Shown piece by piece: positions 1 to 41,208 of a stretch of DNA of 41,208 nucleotides (position 1 is its first letter; every line of letters begins with the position of its first letter). The DNA comes from a virus: UHGV virus genome UHGV-0041851. One strand, given 5' to 3'. The position numbers were made by a program, and so were the translations under genes. A model generated the notes under the pieces. That model saw only the letters and a program-made list of their open reading frames with translations, ran no database searches and was not told where the DNA came from.

Positions 1-55
1 TACGGTAAGCTGAATATGGAGTTCTGAGCCTTCCCACCATGATCGGGGAAGACCC
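1..55. repeat. Terminal inverted repeat, left copy (exact reverse complement of 41154-41208)
   Basis: Reverse complement of the last 55 nt of the window equals the first 55 nt exactly; identity stops at nt 56. Confidence 0.9.
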
Positions 56-88
56 ATAAATGAACAGTATTATTGAGGTGGAAACGCT

Positions 89-478
89 ATGGGCTTCCCT
101 TCTCCTGCGGCGGATTATGTTGAAAGCCGAATTTCTCTTGATCAGCAACTAATCAGGCATCCATCAGCAACCTACTTCATGCGGGCAGCTGATAGCCATC
201 ACCGTGAGGGAATATTGCAGGGTGCTTTGCTGGTGGTTGATTCCTCGCTTACTCCGGTTGATGGTTCTCTGCTTGTGTGCGCTATGGAGGGTGAATATCG
301 CATAAAGAGATACAGGAAGTATCCGCGCCAGCACCTGGAGGATTTAAGCACCGGGAAGAAAGAGGCGTTACCAGTAGATGACGATGGATGCACGGGCAGT
401 AATGCTGTTTTTGGTGTGATCACTCATGTCATCAATGATGCCCGAAGTGGGGAGTTTGATGATTGTCCGGTGATTTAA
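89..478 (+). CDS. humD: HumD, UmuD'-like SOS mutagenesis protein homolog
   Basis: 129-aa ORF; translation aligns by eye with the UmuD C-terminal domain (GFPSPAADYVE, HPSATYF, FGVV/ITHV); sits directly upstream of phd-doc. Confidence 0.8.
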   Translation: MGFPSPAADYVESRISLDQQLIRHPSATYFMRAADSHHREGILQGALLVVDSSLTPVDGSLLVCAMEGEYRIKRYRKYPRQHLEDLSTGKKEALPVDDDGCTGSNAVFGVITHVINDARSGEFDDCPVI

Positions 479-550
479 GCTGCAAAGTGCTGGTGCTTTA
501 TGCCTGTGAAGTTTATAATTGTGTACACATAACGAGTACACGAGGTGTTT

Positions 551-772
551 ATGCAATCCATTAACTTCCGTACCGCGCGCGGCAACCTTTCTGAAGTGCT
601 CAACAATGTTGAAGCCGGGGAAGAGGTTGAAATCACCCGCAGAGGCCGTGAGCCAGCAGTAATTGTCAGCAAGGCTACTTTCGAAGCCTACAAAAAAGCG
701 GCGCTGGATGCTGAATTTGCATCCCTGTTTGACACTCTGGACTCCACCAACAAGGAACTGGTTAACCGATAA
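551..772 (+). CDS. phd: Phd antitoxin (prevent host death)
   Basis: 73-aa product [32 protein letters not shown]... recognised as P1 Phd; ATG at 551 is two codons inside the GTG-started track ORF; stop overlaps doc start (TAATG). Confidence 0.95.
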
Positions 773-1152
773 TGAGGCATATATCACCGGAAGAACTTAT
801 TGCGCTTCATGATGCGAATATAAGCCGCTACGGCGGCCTGCCGGGAATGTCAGATCCGGGTAGGGCAGAGGCCATTATCGGGAGAGTTCAGGCCAGAGTT
901 GCCTACGAAGAGATCACCGACCTTTTCGAAGTCTCCGCCACCTACCTGGTGGCTACAGCGAGAGGGCATATATTCAATGATGCCAATAAGCGTACCGCGC
1001 TAAACAGTGCGCTGCTATTTCTACGCCGTAACGGGGTGCAGGTATTTGATTCACCTGAACTGGCAGACCTTACCGTAGGCGCTGCGACTGGCGAGATATC
1101 TGTATCTTCTGTCGCCGACACGTTACGTAGATTGTATGGTTCTGCGGAGTAG
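772..1152 (+). CDS. doc: Doc toxin (Fic-fold kinase, death on curing)
   Basis: 126-aa product [22 protein letters not shown]... recognised as P1 Doc; coupled to phd. Confidence 0.95.
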
Positions 1153-1156
1153 ATTA

Positions 1157-1336
1157 ATGGCACGTAAATACAACAAGTTGTCCCGTGAAGCGTTAAAGAT
1201 GCTTCTTGATGGCGTGAGTCGCCGCGAGGTAAAGCAATACCTGGTTGGTAGGCAAATTGGTGCCAGGACCGCTATTGCTGTGTTATGCCGTCAGGAAATG
1301 GCTGTGCTTAAACAGAGAATGCCGGGCAGCAGATAA
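1157..1336 (+). CDS. pdcA: Small basic protein downstream of doc (pdcA-like)
   Basis: 59-aa ORF from the ATG at 1157 (MARKYNKLSREALKMLL...); name is by position after doc as I recall the P1 map; function unknown. Confidence 0.4.
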   Translation: MARKYNKLSREALKMLLDGVSRREVKQYLVGRQIGARTAIAVLCRQEMAVLKQRMPGSR

Positions 1337-1363
1337 AGCCCAATCAGTGATTAAAGGTGTGAT

Positions 1364-2407
1364 GTGAAAGCCGTAATTACTCCCTTTGTACAGAAAGAGC
1401 TTGGCCTCGCCACGTTCAAAGTGGATCAGGAGGTCAGAAAGCTGGTGGAGGCTGGCCGTAAATTTATTATGGAGCCGGTGCCGCGTGAGTTAATCGAGCA
1501 CATGGAAGACGGCCTCGTTGTTACCGAGCAAACCATGGCAACAAATGAGGCGTTGCAGCCGTTTTTTAACAGCGATGAACTGTTTCGCCGTATTGGTGGA
1601 ATTGACGCGCTGGTTGCGTGGTTGCGTAGGAAAGAGGGTCAATGCCAGGCCGCAGATCGTAGTTGGTGTGACAACCATATTGTCCACGCTGAACGAGACA
1701 ATAGCGCGGTGTTGTTGTGCTGGCATCACGATAACCATTACCGGATGCGTGGTTTTAATGAGCTGAAAGAAACGCTGCACAATAATCGCGTTAACTGGAT
1801 ACTGGATGTCGCCCGTCAGGAAATGGGCCTTTCAAATAGCCATGATTTAAGTATTCAGGAGCTGTGCTGGTGGGCTTTCATGCGCAACATGATGCACCTG
1901 ATGCCGGAAGAAGTCTGCCGCATATCAATAAATAAGATGAAGGCTACTCCGCAGGATAGTGGACCTCTGAAAGAGGCGGATATTCGCCCGTATGACGATC
2001 GCGCTACAGCATATGTTCAGATGATGGAAGAACGCGCCGCGCCGATGCGTGCAAAAGTATGCCCTGTGGATGTTGACTCCGACCCTAGCATGGCGCATTT
2101 CAAAATACCAAAACTTCAATCGCTAAAATTGCCCGAGTACATGGATTTTGTGGCTTCCCGTCCATGCTGTGGCTGTGGAGCTGCGGGAGCTGGCGCTCAC
2201 ATTACGCCTTATATCGTTCGTCATAGTCGATTATGCGCGCATGACATTTATGCTATTCCTCTGTGCCAGTCATGCCAGCGTGATATTGAGCGTGACCGCG
2301 ATAATTGGGAGAAGACGCACGGTAGGCTGGCGATGCATCAACGATTGTTCTTTGATTACGCGCTTGGAGTCGGCGCTATCACAAGTCATTCGTCGAGCGT
2401 TAGATGA
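1364..2407 (+). CDS. pdcB: Cysteine/histidine-rich hypothetical protein (pdcB-like)
   Basis: 347-aa ORF with GTG start after a GGTG Shine-Dalgarno; C-terminal cluster PCCGCG..H..C.H..CQSCQ suggests metal binding; name by position only. Confidence 0.45.
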
Positions 2408-2408
2408 A

Positions 2409-2425
2409 ATTGCTCTAATGCATTG
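2409..2425 (+). promoter_or_regulatory. C1 repressor operator-like site upstream of lpa
   Basis: ATTGCTCTAATGCATTG matches the asymmetric 17-bp C1 operator consensus ATTGCTCTAATAAATTT at 13/17 positions; about 70 bp upstream of lpa. Confidence 0.5.
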
Positions 2426-2495
2426 CTATTTCTTTAATCGATGGTATTATATTCGACGTTGATTAGTTGACATGGGCTAATCAGTAGGTGACAGG

Positions 2496-2948
2496 ATGTT
2501 ACTTAACTGGCAGGGACGCCACTTCATGGAAATAAATCACTCACGAATAACATCGTACGAGATTGCGGATTACATGATCCGCACTAAATCTCTTCTATCA
2601 GCGAAAGAACTCGCAGCAATTCTTGAAAAGGAATACCCGCATCTGGATGTCGATAAGCGCGATGTTTATCTGCGCTTAAAGGCTATCGCTGTGTCTAAGT
2701 ATTCGTCTGTTTTGATTGATGACAGTACACGCCCACGTAGATTTCAGATCCACTCTCTGAATCCTGAATTCTTTCGCCGCAGCCGCGCTCCGCGCCGGTT
2801 TGATGAAAAACTCCAGAACGAACTCTATATGACGCAGGACGAAAAGGAACGCCGGGAGCACCAGCCTTGGGTAATGGCGCGTCAACTTTTCAATAAGGTG
2901 GCCCGTCAGCACCGTCATTACGGTAATGCCACATCCGCACGTATCTGA
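2496..2948 (+). CDS. lpa: Lpa, late promoter activator (gene 10)
   Basis: 150-aa ORF directly upstream of pacA with a C1 operator in front; true start may be the internal ATG at 2526 (MEINHSRITSY...). Confidence 0.6.
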   Translation: MLLNWQGRHFMEINHSRITSYEIADYMIRTKSLLSAKELAAILEKEYPHLDVDKRDVYLRLKAIAVSKYSSVLIDDSTRPRRFQIHSLNPEFFRRSRAPRRFDEKLQNELYMTQDEKERREHQPWVMARQLFNKVARQHRHYGNATSARI

Positions 2949-2974
2949 TTGATTGCTTGCCCGTTCCGGGCCTT

Positions 2975-2987
2975 TTGACATGTGACT
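2975..2987 (+). promoter_or_regulatory. Candidate late-promoter element upstream of pacA
   Basis: TTGACATGTGACT, one of four copies of the motif T-T/G-A/G-ACA-A/T-GTGA-C/T-T found in the same orientation upstream of late genes (pacA, mat, prt, lyz). Confidence 0.4.
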
Positions 2988-3033
2988 TTCGTTACCCTCG
3001 CGTCAAAAAGAGTTTTTACGAAAGGAAGCATAA

Positions 3034-4227
3034 GTGACCTGGGACGATCACAAGAAGAATTTTGCTCGCCTGGCGCGAGATGGTGGTTACACCATCGCAC
3101 AGTATGCCGCCGAGTTTAATCTTAACCCTAATACCGCACGTCGTTATCTCCGTGCCTTCAAAGAAGACACCAGGACTGCGGACAGCCGCAAGCCAAATAA
3201 GCCAGTCAGGAAGCCACTAAAAGGCATGATCATTGATCACTCTAATGATCAACATGCAGGTGATCATATTGCGGCTGAAATAGCGGAAAAACAGAGAGTT
3301 AATGCCGTTGTCAGTGCCGCAGTCGAGAATGCGAAGCGCCAAAATAAGCGCATAAATGATCGTTCAGATGATCATGACGTGATCACCCGCGCCCACCGGA
3401 CCTTACGTGATCGTCTGGAACGCGACACCCTGGATGATGATGGTGAACGCTTTGAATTCGAAGCTGGCGATTACCTGATAGATAACGTTGAAGCGCGGAA
3501 GGCCGCGCGCGCTATGTTGCGTCGGTCCGGGGCCGATGTTCTGGAAACCACTCTTCTTGAAAAGTCTCTTTCTCATCTCCTTATGCTGGAGAACGCCAGG
3601 GATACGTGTATTCGCCTGGTGCAGGAAATGCGCGATCAGCAAAAAGACGATGATGGAGGTACTCCGCCTGAATACCGTATCGCGAGCATGCTAAACAGCT
3701 GTTCCGCGCAGATAAGCAGTCTGATCAACACCATTTACAGCATCCGGAATAACTATCGAAAAGAAAGCCGGGAGGCGGAAAAGCACGCTTTGTCTATGGG
3801 GCAAGCTGGCATTGTTAAGCTGGCATACGAACGAAAGCGTGAAAATAACTGGTCAGTGCTGGAAGCAGCTGAATTCATCGAGGCGCATGGTGGGAAAGTT
3901 CCGCCCCTGATGCTGGAGCAAATCAAAGCCGATCTGCGTGCTCCTAAGACCAATACCGATGATGAGGAAAGGCAAACAGCCGTCGGTGGCCCTTCTCTTG
4001 AAGATCTGGACAAAGTTGCGCGAGAACGGGCCGCCAACCGCCGCGCCGATGCCGCATTGTGGATTGAGCAGCGTAGGGAAGAAATCGCCGATATCGTTGA
4101 TACAGGCGGTTATGGAGATGTTGATACTGAAGGTGTATCAAACGACCCATGGCTGGAACAAGACCTGGACGAAGACGAGGAGGAAGACGAAGAAGTTACC
4201 CGCAAGCTATACGGGGATGATGATTAA
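3034..4227 (+). CDS. pacA: PacA, terminase pac-recognition subunit
   Basis: 397-aa ORF (GTG start) [28 protein letters not shown]...; acidic C-terminal tail; contains the GATC-rich pac site. Confidence 0.9.
3225..3412 (+). other. pac packaging site (clustered GATC-containing hexamers)
   Basis: Two clusters of TGATCA/G-type elements inside pacA: four at 3226-3268 and three or four at 3357-3412, matching the known architecture of P1 pac. Confidence 0.8.
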
Positions 4228-5711
4228 TGGCCAGAAGTTGCGTAACGGATCCACGTTGGCGCGAGCTGGTGGCGCTATATCGTTATGACTGGATTGCTGC
4301 CGCTGATGTTTTGTTCGGCAAAACACCTACCTGGCAGCAGGATCTGATTATTGAGTCTGTGCAGGAACAGGGTAGCAAGACATCTGTTTCGTCTGGTCAC
4401 GGTACCGGGAAATCAGACATGACTTCTATCATGATCATGTTGTTCATAATCATGTATCCCGGTGCCCGCGCCATTATCGTTGCGAACAAAATTCAGCAGG
4501 TAATGACCGGTATATTCAAGTACATCAAGATAAACTGGGCTACTGCCACCAGCCGTTTTCCATGGCTTGCTGATTATTTTGTTCTGACAGAAACCGCTTT
4601 CTATGAGGTTACTGGTAAAGGTGTATGGACTGTAGTACCGAAGGGCTTTCGTCTGGGAAGTGAAGAAGCTCTCGCCGGTGAACACGCAGATCATCTTCTG
4701 TATATTATCGATGAAGCCTCCGGTGTCAGTGATAGAGCTTTCGGTATCATCACCGGTGCTCTTACCGGACAGGATAACCGCATCTTATTGCTGTCACAGC
4801 CTACACGCCCAAGCGGCTATTTCTACGATACACACCATAAACTGGCCAAGCGTCCTGGTAACCCTGATGGCGTTTATACGGCGATCACGCTTAACAGTGA
4901 GGAATCACCGTTGGTAACGCCAGCATTTATCAAAATGAAGCTGGCGGAGTACGGCGGGCGTGATAACCCTATGTACATGATTAAGGTACGCGGCCTATTC
5001 CCTAAATCACAGGATGGCTTCCTTCTTGGGCGTGATGAGGTTGAACGTGCAACGCGGCGGAAAGTCAAGATTGCAAAAGGATGGGGCTGGCTTGCATGTG
5101 TGGACGTTGCTGGTGGTACGGGACGGGATAAGTCCGTTATCAATATCATGATGGTGTCCGGCCAGCGAAATAAACGCCGTGTAATCAACTATCGAATGCT
5201 GGAATACACAGACGTTACAGAAACGCAGCTTGCCGCCAAAATTTTCGCAGAATGTAATCCTGAGCGATTCCCCAATATCACCATAGCGATAGACGGCGAT
5301 GGCCTGGGTAAAGCAACGGCGGATCTGATGTACGAGTATTATGGTATTACCGTACAGCGTATACGCTGGGGTAAAAAGATGCATAGCCGTGAAGATAAGA
5401 GCCTGTACTTTGATAAACGTGCTTATGCCAACGTTCAAGCCGCAGAGGCCGTAAAATCTGGTCGTATGAGACTGGATAAGGGTAATGAAACTATTGAGGA
5501 AGCGTCGAAAATCCCTGTAGGGATTAACTCCGCAGGTCAATGGAAGGTGATGAGTAAGGAGGATATGAAGAAAAAACTCAACCTGCACTCACCAGACCAT
5601 TGGGATACATATTGTTTCGCTATGCTGGCTGATTATGTTCCCCAGGATGAAGTGCTTAGCGTCGAAGACGAAGCGCAGGTTGATGAAGCTCTGGCATGGC
5701 TTAATGAATGA
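4227..5711 (+). CDS. pacB: PacB, terminase large subunit
   Basis: 494-aa ORF overlapping the pacA stop (ATGA); ATPase/nuclease-like length and operon position. Confidence 0.9.
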
Positions 5712-5714
5712 ATA

Positions 5715-5731
5715 TTTGCTCTAATAAATTG
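5715..5731 (+). promoter_or_regulatory. C1 operator-like site immediately after pacB
   Basis: TTTGCTCTAATAAATTG matches the C1 operator consensus at 15/17; lies at the head of the icd/ant leader region. Confidence 0.55.
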
Positions 5732-5744
5732 TGTTTTTTAACTA

Positions 5745-5885
5745 CCGATGTTACATTGAGCCTGACCTCTTGCGCCTTGAGGCATTTTCGGTTTATGCTT
5801 ATCAGGCACCTCATTAAAACGGGTGCCGGGATTGGCCTCCCGCTTAAGTCTAAGGCGATACAGACGCCGCTCGCGTCTTTTTTTT
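5745..5885 (+). ncRNA. Candidate c4-like antisense RNA / structured leader
   Basis: About 140 nt between the operator and an intrinsic terminator; contains hairpin GGCACC..GGTGCC and a CCUCC element (5836-5840) within ATTGGCCTCCCGCTTAAGTC that is imperfectly complementary to the icd ribosome-binding region (GTCTAAGGAGGCTGCCAAT, 6033-6051). Confidence 0.3.
5863..5885 (+). terminator. Rho-independent terminator-like hairpin plus T8
   Basis: GACGC-CGCTC-GCGTC stem-loop followed by TTTTTTTT. Confidence 0.55.
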
Positions 5886-6050
5886 GTATCGGCGTACACG
5901 CACACCTCTACAATGGTGGGCTGTATGGGGCTACCTTCGGGTAGGCTGGTTACCTTGGACGCCAGTAAGGCCAACTCCGTACAGTCCACCGCCAGCAAGA
6001 TTGGTCTCTTCTGCGGTGGTTACATACCAACGTCTAAGGAGGCTGCCAAT

Positions 6051-6272
6051 ATGGCTACTATCCCTACCCCAACTCATCCTGAATTTATCTGGCGCTTTTA
6101 CTCCTGCCAAAAACGTCACTATCACTTCGTTATTGCACCGACAGAAGATGAGGCCCGCTCTCAGCTTCCTGACGCCCCATGTATTTTCTCTGCCCGTTTT
6201 TCCACTGATTCACGCAATTCTCTCAGTTACTGGTGCCTCCCTGTTAACGCTTCTGCTCAGGAGGGACTATGA
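6051..6272 (+). CDS. icd: Icd-like small protein (73 aa) translationally coupled to ant
   Basis: ATG at 6051 preceded by TAAGGAGG at good spacing; 73 codons; stop overlaps the ant start (ATGA at 6269-6272); size and arrangement match P1 icd as I recall it. Confidence 0.55.
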   Translation: MATIPTPTHPEFIWRFYSCQKRHYHFVIAPTEDEARSQLPDAPCIFSARFSTDSRNSLSYWCLPVNASAQEGL

Positions 6273-7387: not shown

Positions 7388-7419
7388 TGGAAGAATGCCC
7401 GGTTGATGCCGGGCATAAT

Positions 7420-8271: not shown

Positions 8272-8365
8272 TGATCCTCCTCCAGAATTGACATGGTCAA
8301 TAACGCCCGGCTGAGAAAACCGGTCATTACTGACCTATATTATAGAGGGATCAAACAAAAATAAT

Positions 8366-8829: not shown

Positions 8830-8846
8830 TAATTTATTAGAGCAAT
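8830..8846 (-). promoter_or_regulatory. C1 operator (Op99-type)
   Basis: Minus strand reads ATTGCTCTAATAAATTA, 16/17 to consensus. Confidence 0.6.
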
Positions 8847-9006: not shown

Positions 9007-9416
9007 CTTAAGGGTTATTGAACATGATCAATTTACCTGTAAATCCATACAGTTCAATACCTTACCAGGTCAAATAGTGATCATTTGATCAAGGTTGCGC
9101 TACGTAAAATCTGCGAAATGTTGGCAGTGTTAGTGCTCCAGATTTCGCGTAGCGCACTTAGCACCACCAATCAATCAGAGGTGAAAAATGGGATATTCAG
9201 CTGCTAAAGTGTCCACTCATCTTGAGCTTGAGAAAAATCGTGGTTACTGGCGGGCAAAAGGGTTTGATCGTGATAGTTGTCAACTGTCATTATCGCGCGG
9301 TGAAGAAAAGATAGAACGCAGTCGCGGTCGTTGGCGTTTCTATGACGAGAACCATAAACAGGTAAAGGCAGAGCCGATCCTGTACACTTTACTTAAAACC
9401 ATTATCTGAGTGTCAA

Positions 9417-29562: not shown

Positions 29563-30675
29563 TTAGAATTGGTAGGTCATACCAACAGCAACGATGTTGT
29601 CGGTTGCAACGCCAGATTTTTTGGTAAAATCACTTTCATCGATCAGGTTGATCTTATAGTCAACGAAAGTGGACATATTCTTGTTAAAGTAATAAGTCGC
29701 GCCCACGTCGATGTATTCAACCAGATCCTGGTTACCGAACGCACCAATATTTTCACCGCGAGAGTGTAGGTAAGCGATGGACGGACGCAGGCCGAAATCA
29801 AACTGGTATTGAGCAACGGCTTCAAAGTTTTTCGCCTTGTTCGCGATATGGTCATCACCGAAGACTGTCATATTCTGAGTTTCAGAATAAGTTGTAGCCA
29901 GGTAAATGTTGTTTGCATCATATTTCAGGCCCGTAGCCCATACTTCAGCAGTTTTACCAGAGGCATTCAGAGGGCTGGCTTTAGCATAGGATACCTGTCC
30001 ATCAGTACGGTCAGATTTTGCATAGGTTGCAGCAACGCCAAATCCTTCATAATCGTAAGTAGCTGACAGACCAAAGCCATCACCATTAGATTCAACTTCG
30101 TCGCGGCCTTTCCAGTTGTTCACTTTTGCAGCACTATCATTTTTACCTTGATACTGCAAAGCAAAGTTCAGACCATCAACCAAGCCGAAGAAATTATTGT
30201 TACGATAGGTCGCGACGCCAGTAGCACGCTGGGTCATAAATACATCAGTCTGAGTCCAGGTATCTCCACCAAACTCCGGCAGCACGTCAGTCCAAGCGCC
30301 AACATCATAAGCTACACCGTAGTTGCGACCATAGTCGAGCGAACCATAATCGCCAAAGCGAAGCCCTGCAAACGCAAGACGAGTTTTATCTTTATCAGAA
30401 CCTTCAGTTTCAGAACGGTTACCTTTAAATTCGTACTCCCACTGACCAAAACCGGTTAACTGGTCATTAATCTGAGTTTCACCTTTGAAGCCCATACGAG
30501 CATAAGTTTTATCCCCGTCATCACTAGCCGAAGAAGAGAAGTAATGCTCTGCATTAACTTTGCCGTACAGATCCAGTTTGTTACCGTCTTTGTTATAGAT
30601 TTCTGCCGCTTGTGCAGACATTGCCATCAGAACAGATGCTGCAACCGTAGAAAGTGCCACTGTAATTTTTTTCAT
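29563..30675 (-). CDS. General outer-membrane porin, NmpC/Lc/PhoE-like (OmpC/OmpF family)
   Basis: 370 aa; signal peptide [39 protein letters not shown]; porin hallmarks and C-terminal ...[12 protein letters not shown]; closest by memory to prophage-encoded NmpC/Lc. Confidence 0.9.
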
Positions 30676-30961: not shown

Positions 30962-31314
30962 TCACTTTTTCGTGGATCTCAACTGAGCGTGAGAAGCAGA
31001 TTGTTTTTTACGAGCCAACTGCTTAATGCGGGTGCGTAGCGTCAGATTATTACGCTCAATGCGTTGGGTGAATATTTTGCCGGTCAGATGCTTATTCTTC
31101 GCCCCCCCCCGGCCATAGCTGCCCCAGTCATCGCTGGTGAGCATGCCGATATTGAAGGGTATAAGCAGTGCCAGTAGCTCCCGGCACGTTTGATCGGTTC
31201 GGGGACCAAAAGTGTAGGCCAGTACACCGCCTGTTTTGGTGTTGTACGCGTACCAGAGCCAGTGTTGCCGGCAACGTAGCTCCATTGCTCATCAAGCTCG
31301 CAGATAAGCGCCAC
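30962..31314 (-). pseudogene. insB: insB-like transposase frame, split across two reading frames
   Basis: N-terminal InsB-like segment (..ICELDEQWSYV..) and C-terminal segment (..WLWYAYNTKTGGVLAYTFGPRTD..GKIFTQRIERNNLTLRTRIK..) lie in different frames; a C8/G8 homopolymer at 31098-31105 lies within the frame. Confidence 0.55.
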
Positions 31315-32079: not shown

Positions 32080-35056
32080 TATTTAGCTCCTTTGCCACAC
32101 CTAATAACAGTTCCAGCAATCCGTCACCATTCATCAGTGATGCGGCAGCGGCCTCTTTGTCATGATACAACTGAAGAGCCATAGAGAATACTTCCGTTGC
32201 TGACGTTTTGGAAATAGTCGGTGATTTCTGCCGAATTTTCCCGGTGTTACTTACTGAGGCTGGCGGGTATACCTTCGCCATATAAATATTACTCAATCGA
32301 GATCTGAAGCACCATTCAGGCTTGCCACGCCCACCGATATTAACGAAAGATGGCTTATCCCCTTCAACATTGGCCTTCAGGAATGACCGGGCTTTCTCTA
32401 ACAAACCAGGGTTACTGTACTCAAGATGATGACCCAGCTCGTGCCACAGTGCACTTGCATTTTCATCGTTCAAATTGACAGCAACAACACCATTTAGATT
32501 TGCATATGCCCTTCCCTGGTGGTGAACCACCTTTGATAAGGTCGAAATTTTACCGCCGGTCAGGCGATAAATATCAGCAAGTTCCTTGCGCAGGTCTATC
32601 CCACCATTCTGTCCAGCGCGGGCTTCTTCCACTTCTTCCGTGATAAAAGAGTCGGCCCACTCAAGAGCTTTTTCTTCAGATACGGATGAGTTGGCGATCG
32701 CACTGTTCATGGCAGATAACACTTTCTCGTGGACCGAACCCATACTTCGCTGATTCATTTGCCAGCGTGTCTGCGGGTTATATGAGAATCGCTTAAGTAG
32801 TTGGTCAAGATGCTCAAGTTCTTCTTCGCTGACATACTTTTTAGCCTCACAAATAATGCCGGGGAGAATATTGCCGTTAGGATTAAACGCTCGCGAAAGG
32901 AAGAGTTTCAGCGCCCCCATGCCCTCCGATGCTTCAATATCACCAATAACCCGGTTAACAATGGCCGCACTCTTCGGATTAGCATCCGCCAACGCTCTGG
33001 CTACGATTTGCAGGGACGATACGACCTCACGCTGCATATCCGTCCTGATCTCATCAATAAACTCTGGCGTTATGCCGTGCTCTTTAAGGATATCCCTGCC
33101 TTCCGCCGTTACCCCATCGATATCACCGACATGTTTATTAACCCGACTTTGCAATGCCTTAAATGCCTTCAGAATTCCACGGGCATCATCCACTTTACTA
33201 ACGGCCTTCCTGAATGCTGGCAAGAAGTCAGAGTTAACCTCATTTTGTTGATCGGCCCACTGAATGGAGGCTTCTTTCATCTCGTCCAGAGTCAGATCAC
33301 CCAACGCGGTATGGTCTGTGAATATGAGCGACAACCTCTGAACCATTTCTGCCAATGGTGATGCCGAATGCGCCGCGCTAAGGAATGCTTTCACCCTGGT
33401 TGGGCGAATGGAAAACCAGTCAATAGCTGGTGGCATATCTCCGTTTTTTATCGCCTGCGCTATCTCATCAAAGCCGTCGCGCCCAAGGGAGGATGCGTGA
33501 TTTAACAATCCGCGAAGTAACGAATTGCTGATACCGAATAATCGGCACCATTTTTTTACGTCGGCAACAGGCATTCGGACAAAATGCGCAAGCACTTGTA
33601 CAAGCTGCTCATCCTGGGGATCGGTGCGGGATAGCAGCCTGATCAGATGAATAATGTCTTTGATGCCGGATGCCCGATGTAATAGCAAGCTGGTATATGG
33701 AGCAACACCGTTGTAACTACCGCCGGAAACGGACTCGAAAAGACCGCCGGATATCCCTTGCATGCCTTCGTTTTCCAGTTCCTGAGACACCTGGCGAAGG
33801 ATATCCTGTAACGACACATCGCCGCCGCCAAACATATCCCCGAGCGCCTGGCCCTGGTGCTGTAACTCATCATTGATACGTTGCGCCATCAACTTAAAGG
33901 CGGTGGCCATACGCTTCGCGCTACGGTTATTCGCGACGATGAACAACGCGAGTGCTTTCACTTCCGGGGCCGTTTCGCTGAACATATCCCCCTGAGCAAT
34001 AACATCGGTAATATGCTGGCCTGACTCCTTCGATTGCCTTACCAGGTCTACCGCATCTTTCAATGCCGCCAGCGCCTTTTTATCGAGGCTATCCGCTGTC
34101 TCAATGCCATCAACAATAGTTGTCACAGCCTGCTTGTGCGCTTCTCCTGACAAAGCCTGCATCTGGACAAAATCATTGGCTGCCGCATTAAGCGCCGTCA
34201 GAACATTACGCATATCCGGATCAGGTTCTTCTGCAACCATCCTTACCAGGCGCGCATCCTTATATGCCTTGGCAAAGATCGCGTTTTGTATACGGTCTAC
34301 AAGTTGCCGTGTTGGTCGCCCATCTTCAGTTACAAGGCCAGCCGCCTGTGTGGCACCAACTTGCGTCATAAATCCGCGAATAAACGTGTCATTACTGCGG
34401 CTAAGCAGATCTCCGCTTTCTGACGGGTTAAAAAGCGCCATCATCGCCGGTGTTATGCTGTCGGCATCAACAAAAGCCTTTTCACTGGCTGCCATTTCCT
34501 GAAGATCAGAAATATTTGAGTCCTTGGCAAACTGAACGCGGTCAACCTTAGTTAACCGGCGGCGCACCAGTACCGGAGCCGTCATTGATTCAACCTTTTC
34601 AGGTCGTATGCCGAATTCGGTCGCATGATCAATCAGGTACTCACGATACCGATCCGCATTGCCGTCCTGATAGGCTTTAATGATCCCCATGGTCCGTCCA
34701 TTACCTGACTCAACGGCATTGTCCTCACCAATTATCGGCGCGCCATGGCTGGATAGACCGGAATCGGTAAGCTGAGCAGGCCGCAAATCCTTGGATATCT
34801 GGTTAACCTGAAGAAGGCTGGATGCGCGGGTCCGGTCGCGCGGTTGAAGTTCCTGGGGATAGTCAGGATTAATTTTCCCATCCAGAGTATTGGATACCAA
34901 AAGAGCTGAGGCATCGACGATATCAAACGCTGTTTTTACCTCGTCTCCCTTCGCTGTCACCACATACGAAACCCGCCCATAATCGGGCAAGTTCTTTAGC
35001 AGCTCGATCAGCGTTTCTATGCTGGTGGCCATTACCACCTGATCGCTTAAGCTCAT
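32069..35056 (-). CDS. ddrB: DdrB, large Dar-associated head protein (putative)
   Basis: 995-aa ORF immediately downstream of ddrA/darA on the same strand; assignment by size and synteny. Confidence 0.65.
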   Translation of the reverse strand: MSLSDQVVMATSIETLIELLKNLPDYGRVSYVVTAKGDEVKTAFDIVDASALLVSNTLDGKINPDYPQELQPRDRTRASSLLQVNQISKDLRPAQLTDSGLSSHGAPIIGEDNAVESGNGRTMGIIKAYQDGNADRYREYLIDHATEFGIRPEKVESMTAPVLVRRRLTKVDRVQFAKDSNISDLQEMAASEKAFVDADSITPAMMALFNPSESGDLLSRSNDTFIRGFMTQVGATQAAGLVTEDGRPTRQLVDRIQNAIFAKAYKDARLVRMVAEEPDPDMRNVLTALNAAANDFVQMQALSGEAHKQAVTTIVDGIETADSLDKKALAALKDAVDLVRQSKESGQHITDVIAQGDMFSETAPEVKALALFIVANNRSAKRMATAFKLMAQRINDELQHQGQALGDMFGGGDVSLQDILRQVSQELENEGMQGISGGLFESVSGGSYNGVAPYTSLLLHRASGIKDIIHLIRLLSRTDPQDEQLVQVLAHFVRMPVADVKKWCRLFGISNSLLRGLLNHASSLGRDGFDEIAQAIKNGDMPPAIDWFSIRPTRVKAFLSAAHSASPLAEMVQRLSLIFTDHTALGDLTLDEMKEASIQWADQQNEVNSDFLPAFRKAVSKVDDARGILKAFKALQSRVNKHVGDIDGVTAEGRDILKEHGITPEFIDEIRTDMQREVVSSLQIVARALADANPKSAAIVNRVIGDIEASEGMGALKLFLSRAFNPNGNILPGIICEAKKYVSEEELEHLDQLLKRFSYNPQTRWQMNQRSMGSVHEKVLSAMNSAIANSSVSEEKALEWADSFITEEVEEARAGQNGGIDLRKELADIYRLTGGKISTLSKVVHHQGRAYANLNGVVAVNLNDENASALWHELGHHLEYSNPGLLEKARSFLKANVEGDKPSFVNIGGRGKPEWCFRSRLSNIYMAKVYPPASVSNTGKIRQKSPTISKTSATEVFSMALQLYHDKEAAAASLMNGDGLLELLLGVAKELNNAD

Positions 35057-35068
35057 CCCTGTTACGCC

Positions 35069-35434
35069 TTATGCTGCCTCTTTAATGTTGGCGGCTATCC
35101 ATGCCGCCGTGTGCTGTTTAACCTGGTCCAGGTCGATGTATGTGCCAACATATTGACTCAAATCCTGCAAGGTACCGATAAATGCATCGGTGCTCTGATC
35201 GACGAATTTATCAGCCAGGAAATCAGCAACCAGTTTTGGCACACCATCATGTTCCGAAGGTTGTTTTTCCTCGCCACTACCACCTCCGGACGCGCCGTAC
35301 CCCATCTGTTGCATGATCTGGTCGATTTCATCGCTGATATCCAGCAACTCCATGCCACTCGCGGTAGCCGCTTTGGACATCAGAGCATCCAACTTATCGC
35401 TGAGATCCATTAACTCAATAGCTGATAGTGTCAT
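35069..35434 (-). CDS. ddrA: DdrA (putative)
   Basis: 121-aa acidic ORF overlapping the darA stop. Confidence 0.55.
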   Translation of the reverse strand: MTLSAIELMDLSDKLDALMSKAATASGMELLDISDEIDQIMQQMGYGASGGGSGEEKQPSEHDGVPKLVADFLADKFVDQSTDAFIGTLQDLSQYVGTYIDLDQVKQHTAAWIAANIKEAA

Positions 35435-37350
35435 GCCGCTACCCCCGCTTTCTGGATTGCTACCAGCAGATCAGCCAGGTGGCGAGCAGCGCCATTAACC
35501 AGCTCTTCGTTTTCCTCAAAACGCCCGGCAGCCTGAAGGGCTGCAATCGCTTCCCGGACATTGCCCCGGGCGTTACGGATCTCCGCCATGTCAGTGCTTT
35601 GCATATCCATCACGTTATTGAGATATTCAATGGCTTTATTAGCCTCTGCATCTGCTTCGCTAACCGTTTCATCAGGCTGTGCCGGGGCAGGTTCTGGCTG
35701 AGTAATCTCACCGACTTCGGCCTGCAATGCATTGATCATGCTCTGCACCATTTTTTCGGTGCCAGCGCCCCCCGGATACGCAATATTGGGGAAAGTTTTT
35801 TGAAACTGAGTTTTCAGCATTACGCGGAACTCGTCTGGTGAGCTGGTGGCCAGCTCCAGAGCTTTTTGTGCATATTTGCCAAACGGACCATTAGTAAGTG
35901 TCTTCGCCAAGAAGTCGAAAGAATCCTCGCGAGGCAATAACTTCAGGTCGTACTCACTCATTTGCTGATCAGAAAGCGGGGTATCGTAAGTAGCAATGCC
36001 GTAGCGTGCATATTCATAATACGGGTCACCTTCATCAGGGCGCGGCAGAATTGCTTTGTTACCTTCAGGTATTGCGCCAGGGGCCGCCGGACGCATTTGC
36101 AGGGCATATCGATATGCACCTACAGAGACTTCTGGTTCAGGCGAAGAGCTACCGGTATCCTCCGCTGGTTCAGGTTCGACGTTTTCCGGTTTATGTTCTT
36201 CTGGTTGGACCAGGTATTCCGATACATTACCCGCTTTATAGGCTTTAAACAGCTTGCCGATCGCATCTGCCATGTCCACACCCTGTATGGATTTAGCCTT
36301 GATCATGTACACGCTGCCATCCGAATCGGTTAACTGGATATACCCTTCACCGTCCTCAATGAATTGCTTCATTGATGCACCATTACTGAGCGTCACTTCC
36401 CCGTTCATATGCATACGATTTTTGATACTTGCAAGGCGATCCGTCATCGCGCGAGAGTGTCCACCAGTCATCCCCGCAGGAGCAATGGTTTCGCGCCCAC
36501 CAGTTCGATTGAGCTGATCAATCTCCGTCTGCAAACGCTCATTCTCTTCATAAAGAGAATCCGCTTCCGATGCAACAGCGTTAATTTTCTGCTCCAGATC
36601 TACCTTCTGCCCTTCTACCGCTGCCACCTGATCCGCGAGGTCGCTCATGGCATCCTCTTTCTGGTCACTGTCAGCCTGTAGTTGGGTTATTTCATCAACC
36701 AGGGCTTTTTTCTTCTTCTGCGCACGCTGGAATTTTGCCGAGTTTTTCTCTGCAAGGTTGGCAAGTTTCATGGTGACCTGCGCCAGCGTCATATCACGTC
36801 CACTCATCGGAGCAACGGTATGAGTAACGTCTTTTTTATTCAGTAAGAACTGGAAAGCAATCAGCGTATCGCTATTGGTGATCCGGTTTTCCGCTGTCGG
36901 GCTATGAAACAGAATGCTGATAGTCTGACCATCACTGAGCGGAATAATGGCTGGCAGGACCGGCAGCCCGTTAACGTTACGTGCCCGGCCAATTTCAGCC
37001 CCGCCGATCGCGCGTGCACCGTTCTGGGCCACATCCCCCGTTTTATCACTCCCCGCAGAGATTCCGGTACCATTCAGCTTCTGGTTTAATGCCCGGACAA
37101 ATGCCTGCATGGTCCGGTGTAACTGCAAACGAGTAGAACTAATCGCCTCCAGTAAATCCGTAGCACACCAGTGGATCGGCGTGTCATAGAAGAACGTAGC
37201 CTCGATTTCCTCCAGGGTGTTGGATTCCGTCATCAGATAGCGGTCCTCACCGGCCATTAATGCGCGATATTCATCATCAGTCACTGGCGGGGGAAGCACG
37301 TCAAGCCCAGGCTTGATCGTCACCCCTTTATTGATATTGAACTGTTCCAT
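35431..37350 (-). CDS. darA: DarA, defence against restriction / internal head protein
   Basis: 639-aa ORF, the size reported for P1 DarA; central coiled-coil region; follows hdf. Confidence 0.8.
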   Translation of the reverse strand: MEQFNINKGVTIKPGLDVLPPPVTDDEYRALMAGEDRYLMTESNTLEEIEATFFYDTPIHWCATDLLEAISSTRLQLHRTMQAFVRALNQKLNGTGISAGSDKTGDVAQNGARAIGGAEIGRARNVNGLPVLPAIIPLSDGQTISILFHSPTAENRITNSDTLIAFQFLLNKKDVTHTVAPMSGRDMTLAQVTMKLANLAEKNSAKFQRAQKKKKALVDEITQLQADSDQKEDAMSDLADQVAAVEGQKVDLEQKINAVASEADSLYEENERLQTEIDQLNRTGGRETIAPAGMTGGHSRAMTDRLASIKNRMHMNGEVTLSNGASMKQFIEDGEGYIQLTDSDGSVYMIKAKSIQGVDMADAIGKLFKAYKAGNVSEYLVQPEEHKPENVEPEPAEDTGSSSPEPEVSVGAYRYALQMRPAAPGAIPEGNKAILPRPDEGDPYYEYARYGIATYDTPLSDQQMSEYDLKLLPREDSFDFLAKTLTNGPFGKYAQKALELATSSPDEFRVMLKTQFQKTFPNIAYPGGAGTEKMVQSMINALQAEVGEITQPEPAPAQPDETVSEADAEANKAIEYLNNVMDMQSTDMAEIRNARGNVREAIAALQAAGRFEENEELVNGAARHLADLLVAIQKAGVAA

Positions 37351-37351
37351 G

Positions 37352-37963
37352 TTAATTTCCTGCTTTCAGTTGCTTAAGACGGCGTTTGAGTTCGCCATTT
37401 CGGGCCTTTTCGTTATTGAGTCGGCCTGTCTCCTTATCCAGCTTCGCCCGCAAATCAGTGATCTGCTGTTGATTGAAAGACACCGAGTTCTGCGCTGATT
37501 TATAAGCGGCAACCACCTGAGCATTCCGCTGTTTTGCCTCTTGCAGGCGCTGAAAGTTGGATTTTACTGCCGGTTTCTTGTCTACCGGATTGGCAACACG
37601 TTTCGCTTTGGCGATCAGTGATTTCTGGAATTTTGCGGAGTTTTTGCGGGCCGCTTGCCCCATGACGGTACCAAGCGTCTTGATATCCGGCGACTGAGCG
37701 TTAGGAATAGCTTTTCCATTCAGCCTCACAGACGATATATCGCCAGTATCGTTTACCTGTATGGCAAGAATTTGTCCGTCGTTAAGAACCAGCTTTGCGG
37801 TTTTAACTTTAACGCCATCTTTCGTTGTTGCGCGGTTGCTGGAGTCAACCTCAATTACCGTAACACCGGTTTTATTGATCGCCGCGATAAGGGATTTCAG
37901 CCCCTTTTCATTAACCTGGTCAAAATCGACCGTTGCATACTTATTTTTCGTCATCTGACACAT
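37352..37963 (-). CDS. hdf: Hdf (putative)
   Basis: 203-aa basic, coiled-coil ORF directly upstream of darA. Confidence 0.55.
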   Translation of the reverse strand: MCQMTKNKYATVDFDQVNEKGLKSLIAAINKTGVTVIEVDSSNRATTKDGVKVKTAKLVLNDGQILAIQVNDTGDISSVRLNGKAIPNAQSPDIKTLGTVMGQAARKNSAKFQKSLIAKAKRVANPVDKKPAVKSNFQRLQEAKQRNAQVVAAYKSAQNSVSFNQQQITDLRAKLDKETGRLNNEKARNGELKRRLKQLKAGN

Positions 37964-38384
37964 CCTGTGCGAGATTTATTACGTAACTTCTGCGGATTTG
38001 CTGAGTAACAGGGAAAATCCGATACAACGGGTTAATGAACGAGTCGCCATGCGTAACCATGACGTTGAAATGCCACAGTCGCTCTCCTTTACCCATATAT
38101 TCAGTGGGTATGTACAACCATTCACTGTTTTCGCCCTGTTCAGCCGACGTCAAACAACGTTGTTCGCCTTCAATCACTGTCGTCGGCTTCTGAACATCGC
38201 GGATCCAATATCTGACCGTTGCGCCGCGCAAAAACGGGAATTTAGACCGGTATTTGAACGGCACCCGGATGAAACCCGGTTTAATTTCCACATCACCAAG
38301 TTCTAAATGCGTGATGTCCTTGCGTTTTAGCAAATAGCGATCGGCTAAGGCTAACGCAAGAACGCATACACCCCAGCCAATCAT
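37941..38384 (-). CDS. lydB: LydB (putative antiholin)
   Basis: 147-aa ORF overlapping the lydA stop; operon position. Confidence 0.55.
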   Translation of the reverse strand: MIGWGVCVLALALADRYLLKRKDITHLELGDVEIKPGFIRVPFKYRSKFPFLRGATVRYWIRDVQKPTTVIEGEQRCLTSAEQGENSEWLYIPTEYMGKGERLWHFNVMVTHGDSFINPLYRIFPVTQQIRRSYVINLAQDVSDDEK

Positions 38385-38710
38385 TTCCCGCCTCCCTTTT
38401 TCACCAAACTTGTAAGAACATTCAGAATGCTATCGATATTCACTCGTTTCATCCCTGAAATCACCTCATGACCGTTATTGCTGGCTATCGTTACCATTAA
38501 GTACGTAATTGATAACTCCCAGCCCTCGTGTTGCCCCAATAGGTACGCCACCGCGCCAGCTGTCACTGCAACAAAGATCTCCGTAACCAATCCCAACAAA
38601 TTGCCAGACTGGCGACCGTCTCGGACATCCATCAGGAACGTGCCTATCCCACCAATTACTGAAAGCAGGAGCGCAATAGCAACTGGAGCTAATTCCTGTG
38701 TGTCAAGCAC
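38381..38710 (-). CDS. lydA: LydA holin (putative)
   Basis: 109 aa with hydrophobic transmembrane-like segments and a charged C-terminus (KKGGGK). Confidence 0.6.
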   Translation of the reverse strand: MLDTQELAPVAIALLLSVIGGIGTFLMDVRDGRQSGNLLGLVTEIFVAVTAGAVAYLLGQHEGWELSITYLMVTIASNNGHEVISGMKRVNIDSILNVLTSLVKKGGGK

Positions 38711-38784
38711 AAGTTCCCTCCTACGTTGTCAGGAGGTAATGGTATGCAAAGTAACTTCTCAACCGGTTATGTTGCATAAGAGAC

Positions 38785-39048
38785 TTACCTATTCAACCGA
38801 CTTTTGGAACCTTCAATAATAAGCCTGCTATTGGCGCTGAAAATAAGAACCATGCAGCTCTGAAGGCTTTCATTCATGTCCTTATATTCCGCGAGATACA
38901 TGCCAATAAAGCCAGCAAGTACGGCGGAAATACATTCGGCCAGCAATTTCTTGCATGAAGACTCGTAACGGTTTTCACATAGCCCACTCAAATACGAATA
39001 CACCCCACCAAGAAGGGATAACATCACGATATGTACATAAAATGTCAT
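38785..39048 (-). CDS. Small membrane protein (holin-like), first gene of the lyd/dar transcription unit
   Basis: 87-aa ORF with two hydrophobic segments, upstream of lydA. Confidence 0.4.
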   Translation of the reverse strand: MTFYVHIVMLSLLGGVYSYLSGLCENRYESSCKKLLAECISAVLAGFIGMYLAEYKDMNESLQSCMVLIFSANSRLIIEGSKSRLNR

Positions 39049-39175
39049 TTTTTACCTATACAACAGTAAGTTGAACAACATTTGAGAACGGTATGCACTT
39101 TGTGATTTCCACACACACTGGTTTTGTTAATTAAAACCTGTAGCTTGCAATAAATAACGATAGTGGGCAGAAAAT

Positions 39176-39361
39176 ATGCTAATAGGCTATGTACGCATAT
39201 AGACAAATGAACAAAACACAGCTATGCAGTGAAAAGCACTTGAAAGCGCAGGATGTGAGCTAATTTTTGCGAATAAGGCGAGCAGCAAAAAAGCTGGGCA
39301 CCCTGGGTTAAAAAAGGTTCTGCGTATGCTTTCCAGAGGTGATACCCTAGTCTCGGACTAG
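39176..39361 (+). pseudogene. Decayed N-terminal fragment of a second serine DNA invertase gene
   Basis: Translation MLIGYVRI*TNEQNTAMQ*KALESAGCELIFANKASSKKAGHPGLKKVLRMLSRGDTLVSD* parallels the N-terminus of the intact invertase (IGYIRVSTNDQNTDLQRNALNCAGCELIFEDK..PGLKKLLRTLSEGDTLV) but has two in-frame stops and is truncated. Confidence 0.7.
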
Positions 39362-39363
39362 GG
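39345..39363. repeat. Perfect 19-bp palindrome at the truncation point of the invertase pseudogene
   Basis: CCCTAGTC-TCG-GACTAGGG, 8-bp arms with a 3-bp spacer. Confidence 0.8.
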
Positions 39364-39483
39364 ACAACATTTCGAGAACAGTTTTCATTAGCGGTCAGCA
39401 GGCGCTAGATACATCGAATTGATGTGCCGCGCGATAAATGTACCTATTCTATCAAGATAAATTACACCGACGCGGCATTAGAA

Positions 39484-40056
39484 TTACAGCTCAGATTGAG
39501 TTTGGCGCTTCTCTACAGGATGATAACGATAAATCGTCGATACACCGATATCGTAAATAATTGCCAACTGTTTCCTGCTGTAGCCATTTTCGATCAACCT
39601 CGCTATTTGCTCATGTTGTTCTTTTGTCAACTTCGGGCGACGTCCGCCAATGCGTCCCTGTTCGCGTGCAGCTGCCAGTCCGGCCAGTGTTCTCTCAACA
39701 ATTAATTCACGTTCCATTTCTGCTAAAGCACCCATGACATGAAAAAAGAAACGCCCCATGGGTGTTGATGTGTCAATACTGTCTGTCAGACTACGGAAAT
39801 TAACACCTTTTTCCCGCAACTCCTCTATAAGCGTGATAAGGTGTTTCATACTTCTGCCAAGCCTATCCAGCTTCCAGACAACCAGCGTATCTCCTTCTGA
39901 TAACGTTCTGAGCAGCTTTTTCAAGCCTGGTCTGGCTGACTTTGTTCCGCTTATTTTATCTTCAAAAATCAGTTCACATCCTGCGCAGTTCAGTGCATTT
40001 CTTTGTAAATCTGTGTTTTGGTCATTTGTTGACACACGAATGTAGCCAATTTGCAT
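39484..40056 (-). CDS. cin: Serine DNA invertase (Cin/Gin/Hin/Min family)
   Basis: 190 aa from the ATG at 40056 (AGAGG Shine-Dalgarno); catalytic N-terminus IGYIRVSTNDQ, VWKLDRLGRS and C-terminal HTH; adjacent to the tail-fibre cassettes. Confidence 0.85.
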   Translation of the reverse strand: MQIGYIRVSTNDQNTDLQRNALNCAGCELIFEDKISGTKSARPGLKKLLRTLSEGDTLVVWKLDRLGRSMKHLITLIEELREKGVNFRSLTDSIDTSTPMGRFFFHVMGALAEMERELIVERTLAGLAAAREQGRIGGRRPKLTKEQHEQIARLIENGYSRKQLAIIYDIGVSTIYRYHPVEKRQTQSEL

Positions 40057-40116
40057 GAAAAACAACCTCTTTGTTTAGTTAAAAATACATCGTTGGTATA
40101 GGTAGGGATTAAGACT

Positions 40117-40312
40117 AAAACGTTGGTTTGGGGGAAGGCTCAGCATTGCCTGTTGGCGTACCTGTTCCGTGGCCCTCAGCCACTCCGCCAACGGGGTGGC
40201 TGAAATGTAACGGAGCAGCATTTTCTTCTGAAAAGTACCCAAATCTGGCAAAGGCTTACCCTACTAATAAATTGCCGGATTTACGCGGTGAATTTATTCG
40301 TGGCTGGGATGA
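40117..40312 (+). repeat. Conserved 5' block of tail-fibre cassette 1 (candidate crossover region)
   Basis: Near-identical to 40589-40792, including a 67-bp perfect identity (40188-40254 = 40660-40726) encoding TGWLKCNGAAFSSEKYPNLAK; begins with AAAACGTTGGTTT directly after a stop codon. Confidence 0.7.
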
Positions 40313-40589
40313 CGGACGTGGTGTGGATGCCGGGCGACAATTATTATCTTCACAGGGGGATGCAATAAGAAATATTGAGGGGTTCGCAGATGGCGGGATC
40401 GGCATGTCTTTTGATGCAATCAGAGGGGCTTTTTACGATGCAGGAACACGATCAGCGAGAATGCCGAATAACACAACTACTATAGACAAAACCGATGACC
40501 TTGGATTCGACGCCTCTCGTGTCGTGCCAACAGCTAATGAAAACCGTCCTCGTAATATTGCCTTTAATTATATCGTAAGGGCGGCATAA
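40128..40589 (+). CDS. Tail-fibre C-terminal tip cassette 1 (promoterless module)
   Basis: Frame is open from 40119; encodes PVPWPSATPPTGWLKCNGAAFSSEKYPNLAK..., resembling C-termini of lambda Stf / Mu-P1 S-type fibres, and ends with the conserved NIAFNYIVRAA. Confidence 0.7.
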   Translation: MGEGSALPVGVPVPWPSATPPTGWLKCNGAAFSSEKYPNLAKAYPTNKLPDLRGEFIRGWDDGRGVDAGRQLLSSQGDAIRNIEGFADGGIGMSFDAIRGAFYDAGTRSARMPNNTTTIDKTDDLGFDASRVVPTANENRPRNIAFNYIVRAA

Positions 40590-40792
40590 AAACGTTGGTT
40601 TAGGGGAAGGCTCGGCGCTGCCCGTTGGTGTGCCTGTTCCGTGGCCCTCCGCCACACCACCAACGGGGTGGCTGAAATGTAACGGAGCAGCATTTTCTTC
40701 TGAAAAGTACCCAAATCTGGCAAAGGTTTACCCAACGTTAAAATTACCTGATTTACGCGGTGAGTTTATCCGTGGTTGGGATGATTCGAGAG
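40589..40792 (+). repeat. Conserved 5' block of tail-fibre cassette 2
   Basis: Direct repeat of 40117-40312. Confidence 0.7.
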
Positions 40793-41103
40793 GGATTGAT
40801 ACAGGGCGTTCATTGCTAAGTGGTCAGACTGCAACATTTATTCGTACAGCTTTGCAGGATTATTACGGTGTCGATCTGACTACTAATGTCAAAGTAGGTA
40901 TCGCTTATGCTACTGCTGATTCTGTTATAACTGTTGGAAACCCTGCTAATCCTAAAGCAGGAGATAATAGCGATTATGTTCCAGCATCATCAGATAACTC
41001 CATAACAGGCACTCAAAGGACGGCAGAGGATAATTTTACCGGGGCATGGATATCAATGCGCCCCCGCAACGTTGCTTTTAATTACATTGTAAGGGCCACA
41101 TAA
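40630..41103 (+). CDS. Tail-fibre C-terminal tip cassette 2 (promoterless module)
   Basis: Frame is open from 40591; same conserved N-terminal block and C-terminal NVAFNYIVRAT, with a divergent middle region. Confidence 0.7.
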   Translation: MPVPWPSATPPTGWLKCNGAAFSSEKYPNLAKVYPTLKLPDLRGEFIRGWDDSRGIDTGRSLLSGQTATFIRTALQDYYGVDLTTNVKVGIAYATADSVITVGNPANPKAGDNSDYVPASSDNSITGTQRTAEDNFTGAWISMRPRNVAFNYIVRAT

Positions 41104-41153
41104 AAACGTTCCTTAAAAAGCTACGTGCCCAACCGTTGATGCTGTATAAATAA

Positions 41154-41208
41154 GGGTCTTCCCCGATCATGGTGGGAAGGCTCAGAACTCCATATTCAGC
41201 TTACCGTA
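41154..41208. repeat. Terminal inverted repeat, right copy
   Basis: Exact reverse complement of nt 1-55; contains GGGAAGGCTCAG, which also occurs at the start of cassette 1 (GGGAAGGCTCGG in cassette 2). Confidence 0.9.

Follow-up and report, generated by a model that had tools for sequence, protein, structure and literature searches.

The window analysed here, the complete 41,208-nucleotide (nt) stretch of UHGV virus genome UHGV-0041851, begins and ends with the same 55 nt in opposite orientation, and sequence comparison identifies this repeat as the right-hand terminus of an insertion sequence (IS) of ISKox3 type, a member of the ISL3 family. In all probability, inverted right ends of this IS abut a P1-like segment of 41 kilobases (kb), the window edges represent a collapsed repeat, and both IS ends lie in the spacers of LexA operators. 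The flagged repeat is therefore real but ordinary, namely a known IS at the edges of a contig that carries a SPAdes-type name. A by-product of the analysis, the apparent targeting of LexA operators by the wider ISKox3 clade, may outweigh the repeat itself in importance and deserves follow-up.

A script check established that positions 1-55 (TACGGTAAGCTGAATATGGAGTTCTGAGCCTTCCCACCATGATCGGGGAAGACCC) are the exact reverse complement of positions 41154-41208, just as the preliminary description had reported, and a perfect match of 55 nt cannot arise by chance. The identity of the two arms is perfect to nt 55 only. A repeat search nevertheless stretches the arms to 70 nt at 91% identity, and 9 of the 15 nt that follow nt 55 still agree (ATAAATGA-ACAG-TAT versus TTATTTAT-ACAG-CAT). 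This residual similarity exists because both flanks are half LexA operators, in which an AT-rich 8-nt spacer is followed by ACAG.

We assign the two arms to the 3' end of the same ISKox3-type element, with copy A at 1-55 on the plus strand and copy B at 41154-41208 on the minus strand, inverted relative to copy A, and each truncated at 55 nt by the contig end. The first 27 nt comprise the final eight transposase codons (YGKLNMEF) and the stop; the right inverted repeat (IRR) follows at about nt 28-55 and ends ...GATCGGGGAAGACCC. When compared with the canonical ISKox3 right end, which comprises the transposase 3' end and an IRR that terminates in ...GGGGAAGACCC, the window 55-mer is identical at 53 of 55 positions, with two differences. 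It matches all 55 positions at the terminus of three complete IS copies of 1,316 base pairs (bp) on IMG/VR contigs, which are themselves 98.4% identical to ISKox3. Furthermore, four complete plasmids, pM505-b among them, match the window from nt 1. The 55 nt align in pM505-b to the end of a gene annotated as 'ISL3-like element ISKox3 family transposase' and to the sequence adjoining it. The pM505-b element is 1,316 bp long, runs from GGGTCTTCCCTTGTTGTGGTGG... to ...CCACCATGATCGGGGAAGACCC, and has an 8-bp duplication (ATGAATAA) on both sides, within the humD LexA box. Its transposase carries the domains Zn_ribbon_ISL3 (PF14690), HTH_Tnp_ISL3 (PF13542) and DDE_Tnp_ISL3 (PF01610), of which the window holds the last eight codons only. 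Complete copies elsewhere likewise carry an 8-bp target duplication; the far side of each window copy lies outside the stretch.

Both ends of the window correspond to the right end of the IS, and therefore at least two IS copies are involved. One arrangement that we considered and rejected is a single IS in a circular 41-kb molecule. Both ends include the IRR and the transposase stop codon, and an intact single IS would show its left inverted repeat (IRL) once. A search for a LexA box within the IS found none.

Copy A splits the LexA operator of humD within its 8-bp spacer. The right half of this operator occupies 56-67 on the plus strand and consists of the spacer ATAAATGA (56-63), which is the expected target duplication, followed by ACAG (64-67). 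Phage P1 has at this place CTGTATAAATGAACAG, annotated as a LexA binding site (87545-87564), and its sequence around the operator, annotated as the LexA site of lxr/humD, is gtgtaCTGTATAAATGAACAGtattattgagg, whereas the window has the IS joined directly to ATAAATGAACAGTATTATTGAGG. Homology to P1 begins exactly at window nt 56. The first gene beyond the junction is humD (89-478, plus strand), which encodes a UmuD'-like S24 peptidase (PF00717). The IS ends at 55 and the humD ATG is at 89, which bears out the 33-bp distance given in the preliminary description. That account also regarded a position next to humD as unexpected for P1 synteny. There is indeed a break in synteny at nt 56, but it has a simple cause in an IS inserted into the humD LexA operator. 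Splitting the operator should remove LexA control, in which case transcription of humD would come from the side of the transposase gene.

The same operator has been struck on other occasions. In pM505-b, which represents a different P1 lineage, the insertion occupies the humD operator with the spacer ATGAATAA, and in three other plasmids this operator likewise contains ISKox3, independently of the window. The pM505-b lineage also occurs in uninterrupted form with an intact box (locus L082), and the IS variant of pM505-b differs from that of the window. Therefore, the humD operator must have been hit at least twice independently.

Copy B lies in the spacer of a second operator, of the phi80 dinL type, 43 bp beyond the last of three cix-like recombination sites. 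The region upstream of the junction (41104-41153, plus strand) resembles the phi80 dinL upstream region and ends in the left LexA half-operator, comprising CTGT (41142-41145) and the spacer ATAAATAA (41146-41153), such that the junction reads ...gatgCTGTATAAATAA and then the IS. We found no counterpart of 41104-41153 in P1-like plasmids. Prophages in E. coli chromosomes carry the region with identities that reach 100%, and the prophage that matches in full has an intact box, CTGTATAAATAAACAG (in the context ...aaacgttccttaaaaagctacgtgcccaaccgttgatgCTGTATAAATAAACAGtataaatt...), 40 nt upstream of a DinI-family gene. Phage phi80 carries the same module, and its box is annotated as the predicted LexA site of dinL. 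If a LexA operator is taken to be CTGT-N8-ACAG with an AT-rich spacer and a location upstream of an SOS gene, both window flanks read as halves of such operators.

The placement of both copies in LexA operators reflects a wider pattern. Scanning species-representative genomes with the terminal 22-mer of the IS yielded 69 loci with 62 distinct right-end flanks. The bases ACAG occur at exactly +9 to +12 in 43 of these 62 independent flanks, and at least three of the four bases are present in 52, while ACAG at any other offset was never seen more than once among the 62. The flank consensus, ATATATAT-ACAG-T-A, corresponds to the E. coli LexA consensus in its right half. Every complete copy whose flanks could be read exhibits the arrangement CTGT-N8, IS, N8-ACAG, mostly with a perfect 8-bp duplication. 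These observations cover loci L007-L075, L078, L079 and L101-L103, in addition to window positions 1-67 and 41142-41208. The genes directly downstream of clade insertions include six that are UmuD-like, two DinI genes and one Cho-like gene, and the operators occupied are those upstream of umuD/humD, dinI, tisB and cho. For example, canonical ISKox3 resides in CTGT-ATGCATAT-ACAG upstream of an operon of a hypothetical gene and umuD on an IncX3-type plasmid, and in CTGT-TTATTTAT-ACAG upstream of tisB in E. coli chromosomes. These flanking sequences strongly support the conclusion that the ISKox3 clade prefers the LexA operator spacer as a general property that extends beyond the window.

We lean, with modest confidence, towards a broader proposal: that IS elements of the ISKox3 clade hunt SOS operators across Enterobacterales by entering the CTGT-N8-ACAG spacer, that they uncouple the genes of split operators from LexA control, and that the carriers of such split operators include chromosomes, prophages, P1-like plasmids and IncX3 resistance plasmids. 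Recognition could involve either the DNA motif or operator-bound LexA. The preference is not absolute, since ISKox3 has also been found in capsule genes under selection, with the 8-bp duplications ATTTGTAA, ATACATAT and TTATAATT (PMC12057282). The same paper does not discuss the target preference of ISKox3. Full-text literature searches found no paper that ties ISKox3 or ISL3 elements to LexA or SOS boxes, and as far as we could find the LexA preference is unreported.

The implications might be considerable. ISKox3 rides on IncX3 blaNDM plasmids, which have spread worldwide, and about a quarter of complete E. coli genomes contain it; its insertions seem to favour the centres of LexA operators. 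If confirmed, such targeting would define a new class of target-specific IS and would account for the repeated occurrence of the 'umuD-ISKox3' context on resistance plasmids. Moreover, the gain of an IS could rewire mutagenesis, toxin and prophage genes that are under SOS control.

The length of the repeat most likely reflects the overlap between k-mers in the assembly. SPAdes contigs retain k nt of an adjoining repeat, and 55 is a standard final k for SPAdes and metaSPAdes, being the last metaSPAdes default. The record name, NODE_369_length_41208_cov_5.604743 (ena:ERZ501872), has the SPAdes format and denotes a contig from a gut-type metagenome assembly with a coverage of 5.6x; we infer k = 55 from this naming and the default settings. 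Of the 5,426 complete E. coli genomes, 1,644 contain ISKox3/ISEc53-type elements, with a median of two occupied places and a maximum of nine in a genome, as is typical of repeats that break contigs. Many draft contigs, such as Providencia NODE contigs at 124-127 nt, start or end no more than one k-mer from the terminus of this IS.

A multi-copy IS of this kind would collapse into one repeat node in a short-read graph, and the assembler would emit the unique segment between two inverted IS copies with one repeat k-mer (55 nt if k is as we propose) at each end. Each of the two inverted copies would have its transposase gene reading towards the window, and the true inverted repeat would most likely be 1.3 kb long. 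We expect both copies to be complete and their spacers to be duplicated on the far sides. The inner edge of the repeat (55/56 and 41153/41154) is the real IS terminus, and the outer edge is a contig cut. In addition, the contig is unbranched across nt 1-56 and 41153-41208, and thus no IS-free version of either junction is present at the available coverage.

More generally, when the two ends of a contig form a perfect inverted repeat as long as the assembler's k, a collapsed repeat is the reading to adopt. An end repeat of this size is evidence neither of a giant element with terminal repeats nor of a 41-kb segment that inverts. One of the two explanations offered in the preliminary description invoked genuine terminal repeats of a large element. 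The evidence does not support it: the repeat comes from the terminus of a 1.3-kb IS, and there is no sign of the 41 kb moving as one unit. The other explanation, a unit of the assembly graph that carries one repeat on either side in opposite orientation and has an overlap of k-mer size, holds at its core and accords well with the SPAdes-format name. Its suggested tie to the tail-fibre region falls away with the identification of the repeat as an ISKox3-type end.

Several points weigh against the interpretation that we prefer. The window stops 55 nt into each IS copy, so the completeness of the copies and their location on one molecule with the rest of a P1 genome are suppositions. The match of k to 55 for ERZ501872 is drawn from the naming and defaults just described. 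At a coverage as low as 5.6x, minor structural variants would have escaped detection. Finally, neither exact junction was found in PLSDB, the 5,426 complete E. coli genomes, Joint Genome Institute (JGI) metagenome contigs or IMG/VR.

Other histories were weighed, and the most probable of them is still unlikely. A single insertion might have been followed by a rearrangement, in which the IS attacked a second operator intramolecularly or two copies recombined, such that the 41 kb became inverted relative to the remainder of the replicon and may exist in both orientations side by side. Inversion-mode transposition within one molecule would place exactly the same IS end on both sides of a segment, and inverted 1.3-kb repeats are substrates for homologous inversion whose two orientations would be indistinguishable in the graph. 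On the other hand, two independent hits are plausible given the strong preference for operators. ISL3-family elements are also generally thought to move via circular copy-out-paste-in intermediates rather than cointegrates, which counts against this history.

The two histories predict different outer flanks. Two simple insertions would give matching duplications, ATAAATGA with ATAAATGA and ATAAATAA with ATAAATAA, and an inversion would swap them. On the IRL sides, we would expect ...CTGTATAAATGA, coming from lxr/hot, and ATAAATAAACAG-dinI.

We regard it as quite unlikely that the two inverted copies form a composite transposon that mobilises the 41-kb P1 segment, with the 55 nt belonging to its terminal repeats. 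A segment between two inverted copies of a single IS does reproduce the Tn5/Tn10-type architecture. However, the window-adjacent ends would be inner ends in such an element, and its outer ends and any target duplication lie outside the window. Both junctions moreover lie in native operator contexts (humD as in P1 and dinL as in phi80), as would be expected for two simple insertions, and the unit of IS, 41 kb and IS appears in no other record in PLSDB, the 5,426 E. coli genomes, JGI metagenome contigs or IMG/VR. A related candidate, in which the rest of the replicon is an IS-flanked composite transposon in a single LexA box, was prompted by the observation that the spacers ATAAATAA and ATAAATGA differ at only one of eight nt. 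It was rejected on the grounds that the half-operators continue into different native contexts, the phi80 dinL upstream region in one case and P1 humD in the other.

There is very little chance that chimeric or fold-back reads created a false inverted end, even though coverage is low (5.6x) and fold-back chimeras can yield inverted contig ends, because both junctions coincide to the nucleotide with a known IS terminus and with the midpoint of a LexA operator, and the geometry is the same as in more than 50 independent insertions elsewhere, which chimeras would not reproduce.

The right end of the window also contains an invertase and tail-fibre cassette system, in whose region the preliminary description had placed the right copy of the repeat. 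Positions 39353-41110 match p15B-type P1-like plasmids such as p64EVA-6 at 99.6%. A DNA invertase of the Cin/Min/Pin family, a serine recombinase, is encoded at 39484-40065 on the minus strand; it contains the Pfam Resolvase and HTH_7 domains and is 83% identical to a prophage invertase. All other features of this system are on the plus strand. A first cix-like crossover site (..CTAAAACG TT GGTTTGGGGG..) was recognised at 40111-40136 by comparison with the annotated P1 cixL and its crossover point, and a second is located at 40583-40608 on the basis of its sequence and TT core. Two silent cassettes for the tail-fibre C terminus follow these sites. Cassette 1 (40128-40592) is an open reading frame (ORF) with a tail collar domain that shares a repeat with cassette 2 (40630-41103), which is supported as an ORF and by the Pfam Collar domain. 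The stretch in common measures 220 nt (40117-40336 and 40589-40808) at 85% identity and represents the conserved tail-collar portion at the N terminus of each cassette. The cassettes have the same orientation and neither is joined to a constant tail-fibre gene, and they are therefore silent in this configuration. At a coverage of 5.6x, the lack of branches at the cix-like sites says little about ongoing shufflon inversion.

The third cix-like site (41097-41122, core TT at 41109-41110) is a hybrid whose left part is of the p15B/P1-type cassette and whose right part is of the phi80 dinL type. Homology to P1-like plasmids ends at 41110, and homology to the prophage/phi80 region begins at 41104. 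Whereas p64EVA-6 continues after cassette 2 with another cassette, the window continues with the dinL-type flank, which in prophages adjoins an invertase gene of the Pin type. The junction between site 3 and the dinL-type region was not found in PLSDB or the 5,426 complete E. coli genomes. Its location exactly at the crossover dinucleotide points to an exchange, mediated by an invertase, that involved a P1-like plasmid and a prophage module of the phi80/P2 type. The module may have been acquired, or an integration event may have taken place.

A chromosomal region of E. coli 23AR0998 (L005, 2872-5820) illustrates another arrangement of such modules. Its P2-like prophage contains two tandem invertase-dinI modules, located between the prophage tail-fibre assembly gene and the tail sheath gene. 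The invertase-proximal crossover-like site is joined straight to the dinI LexA operator in this prophage, as if the cassettes had been deleted.

The right copy of the repeat is outside any cassette, in the LexA operator, 43 bp past site 3. We see almost no prospect that the repeat belongs to the Cin/Min invertible tail-fibre system, with 41 kb bracketed by crossover or cassette sequence and flipped by the invertase: the right copy is merely 43 bp from a cix-like site, and the 12-mer GGGAAGGCTCAG is common to the repeat and to the starts of cassettes 1 and 2, but the 55-mer is an IS end, the 12-mer in the IS spans the transposase stop codon and is out of register (+64 instead of +8 after the site), and the left copy is in the humD operator, where P1 has no cix site. 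Nor does the 12-mer that the preliminary description had mentioned exceed what chance provides, given that 14.6% of shuffled 55-mers share a match of at least 12 nt with the window. A cix/mix site (about 26 bp, with imperfect inverted half-sites ..AAACC/G and a 2-bp core as in P1 cixL) was sought in the 55-mer and none was found.

Between the humD operator and the invertase region extends the P1-colinear segment (56-39352), which corresponds to P1 87551-94800 and 1-31836. Its genes comprise humD, phd/doc, lpa, pac, c1, lox/cre, res/mod, darB, prt/pro, ddrB, darA, lydA/B/C and the start of the cin region. Window 56-3000 is 98.5% identical to P1 87551-90495 (humD, phd, doc, pdcB and lpa), window 8990-28000 matches P1 1-20211, and window 36209-39352 matches P1 28682-31836 (darA, hdf, lydB, lydA and lydC, together with the beginning of the cin region). 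The window contains a single intact CTGT-N8-ACAG (CTGTAAATCCATACAG), which occurs at 9037-9052, about 48 nt into the region of the P1 coordinate origin, and carries no IS. Copies of ATTGCTCTAAT(A/T)AATT are dispersed at 2408, 5716, 8823 (minus strand), 8913, 10465, 10941, 24954 and 28806, and this sequence would fit the operator consensus of the P1 C1 repressor. A 370-amino-acid porin gene (Porin_1/Porin_4; 29563-30675, minus strand) adjoins an IS1 transposase remnant (30962-31285, minus strand). Related P1-like plasmids have at this place a gene for a 262-amino-acid protein and a Tad2-like gene, and the porin/IS1 arrangement recurs in a second gut-metagenome contig (ERZ913488 k127_14945).

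Several known systems provide useful comparisons. The closest is ISKox3 itself: the window terminus shares its inverted repeat (GGGTCTTCCC...), and the complete copies share the 8-bp target duplication and the ISL3 transposase domains. ISKox3 is often encountered on IncX3 blaNDM plasmids and in the chromosomes of E. coli and Klebsiella. The window shows no more than 55 nt of each copy. The contig ends resemble those that collapsed repeats leave in de Bruijn assemblies, with a SPAdes-format name, a multi-copy IS and a length equal to a standard final k. Chloroplast single-copy regions offer a parallel, in that a unique region between inverted repeats similarly has the same k-mer at both ends in opposite orientation. 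The P1 C-segment and the p15B Min tail-fibre shufflon share with the window the invertase, three TT-core cix-like sites and silent tail-collar cassettes, and p15B-type P1-like plasmids are near-identical to it up to 41110. However, these shufflons are unrelated to the 55-nt repeat, and site 3 of the window leads into a phi80 dinL-type region rather than another cassette.

With regard to target choice, IS1397/ISKpn1 and IS110-family elements in repetitive extragenic palindromic (REP) sequences and bacterial interspersed mosaic elements (BIMEs) (PMC1525189, PMC12288879), as well as elements of the IS1202 group next to XerCD sites (bioRxiv 10.1101/2022.12.17.520857), likewise occupy a fixed position in a short palindromic host motif that is bound by protein and recurs in many genomes. 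What would set the ISKox3 case apart from these target-specific IS elements is that the motif is the LexA operator and the IS belongs to the ISL3 family.

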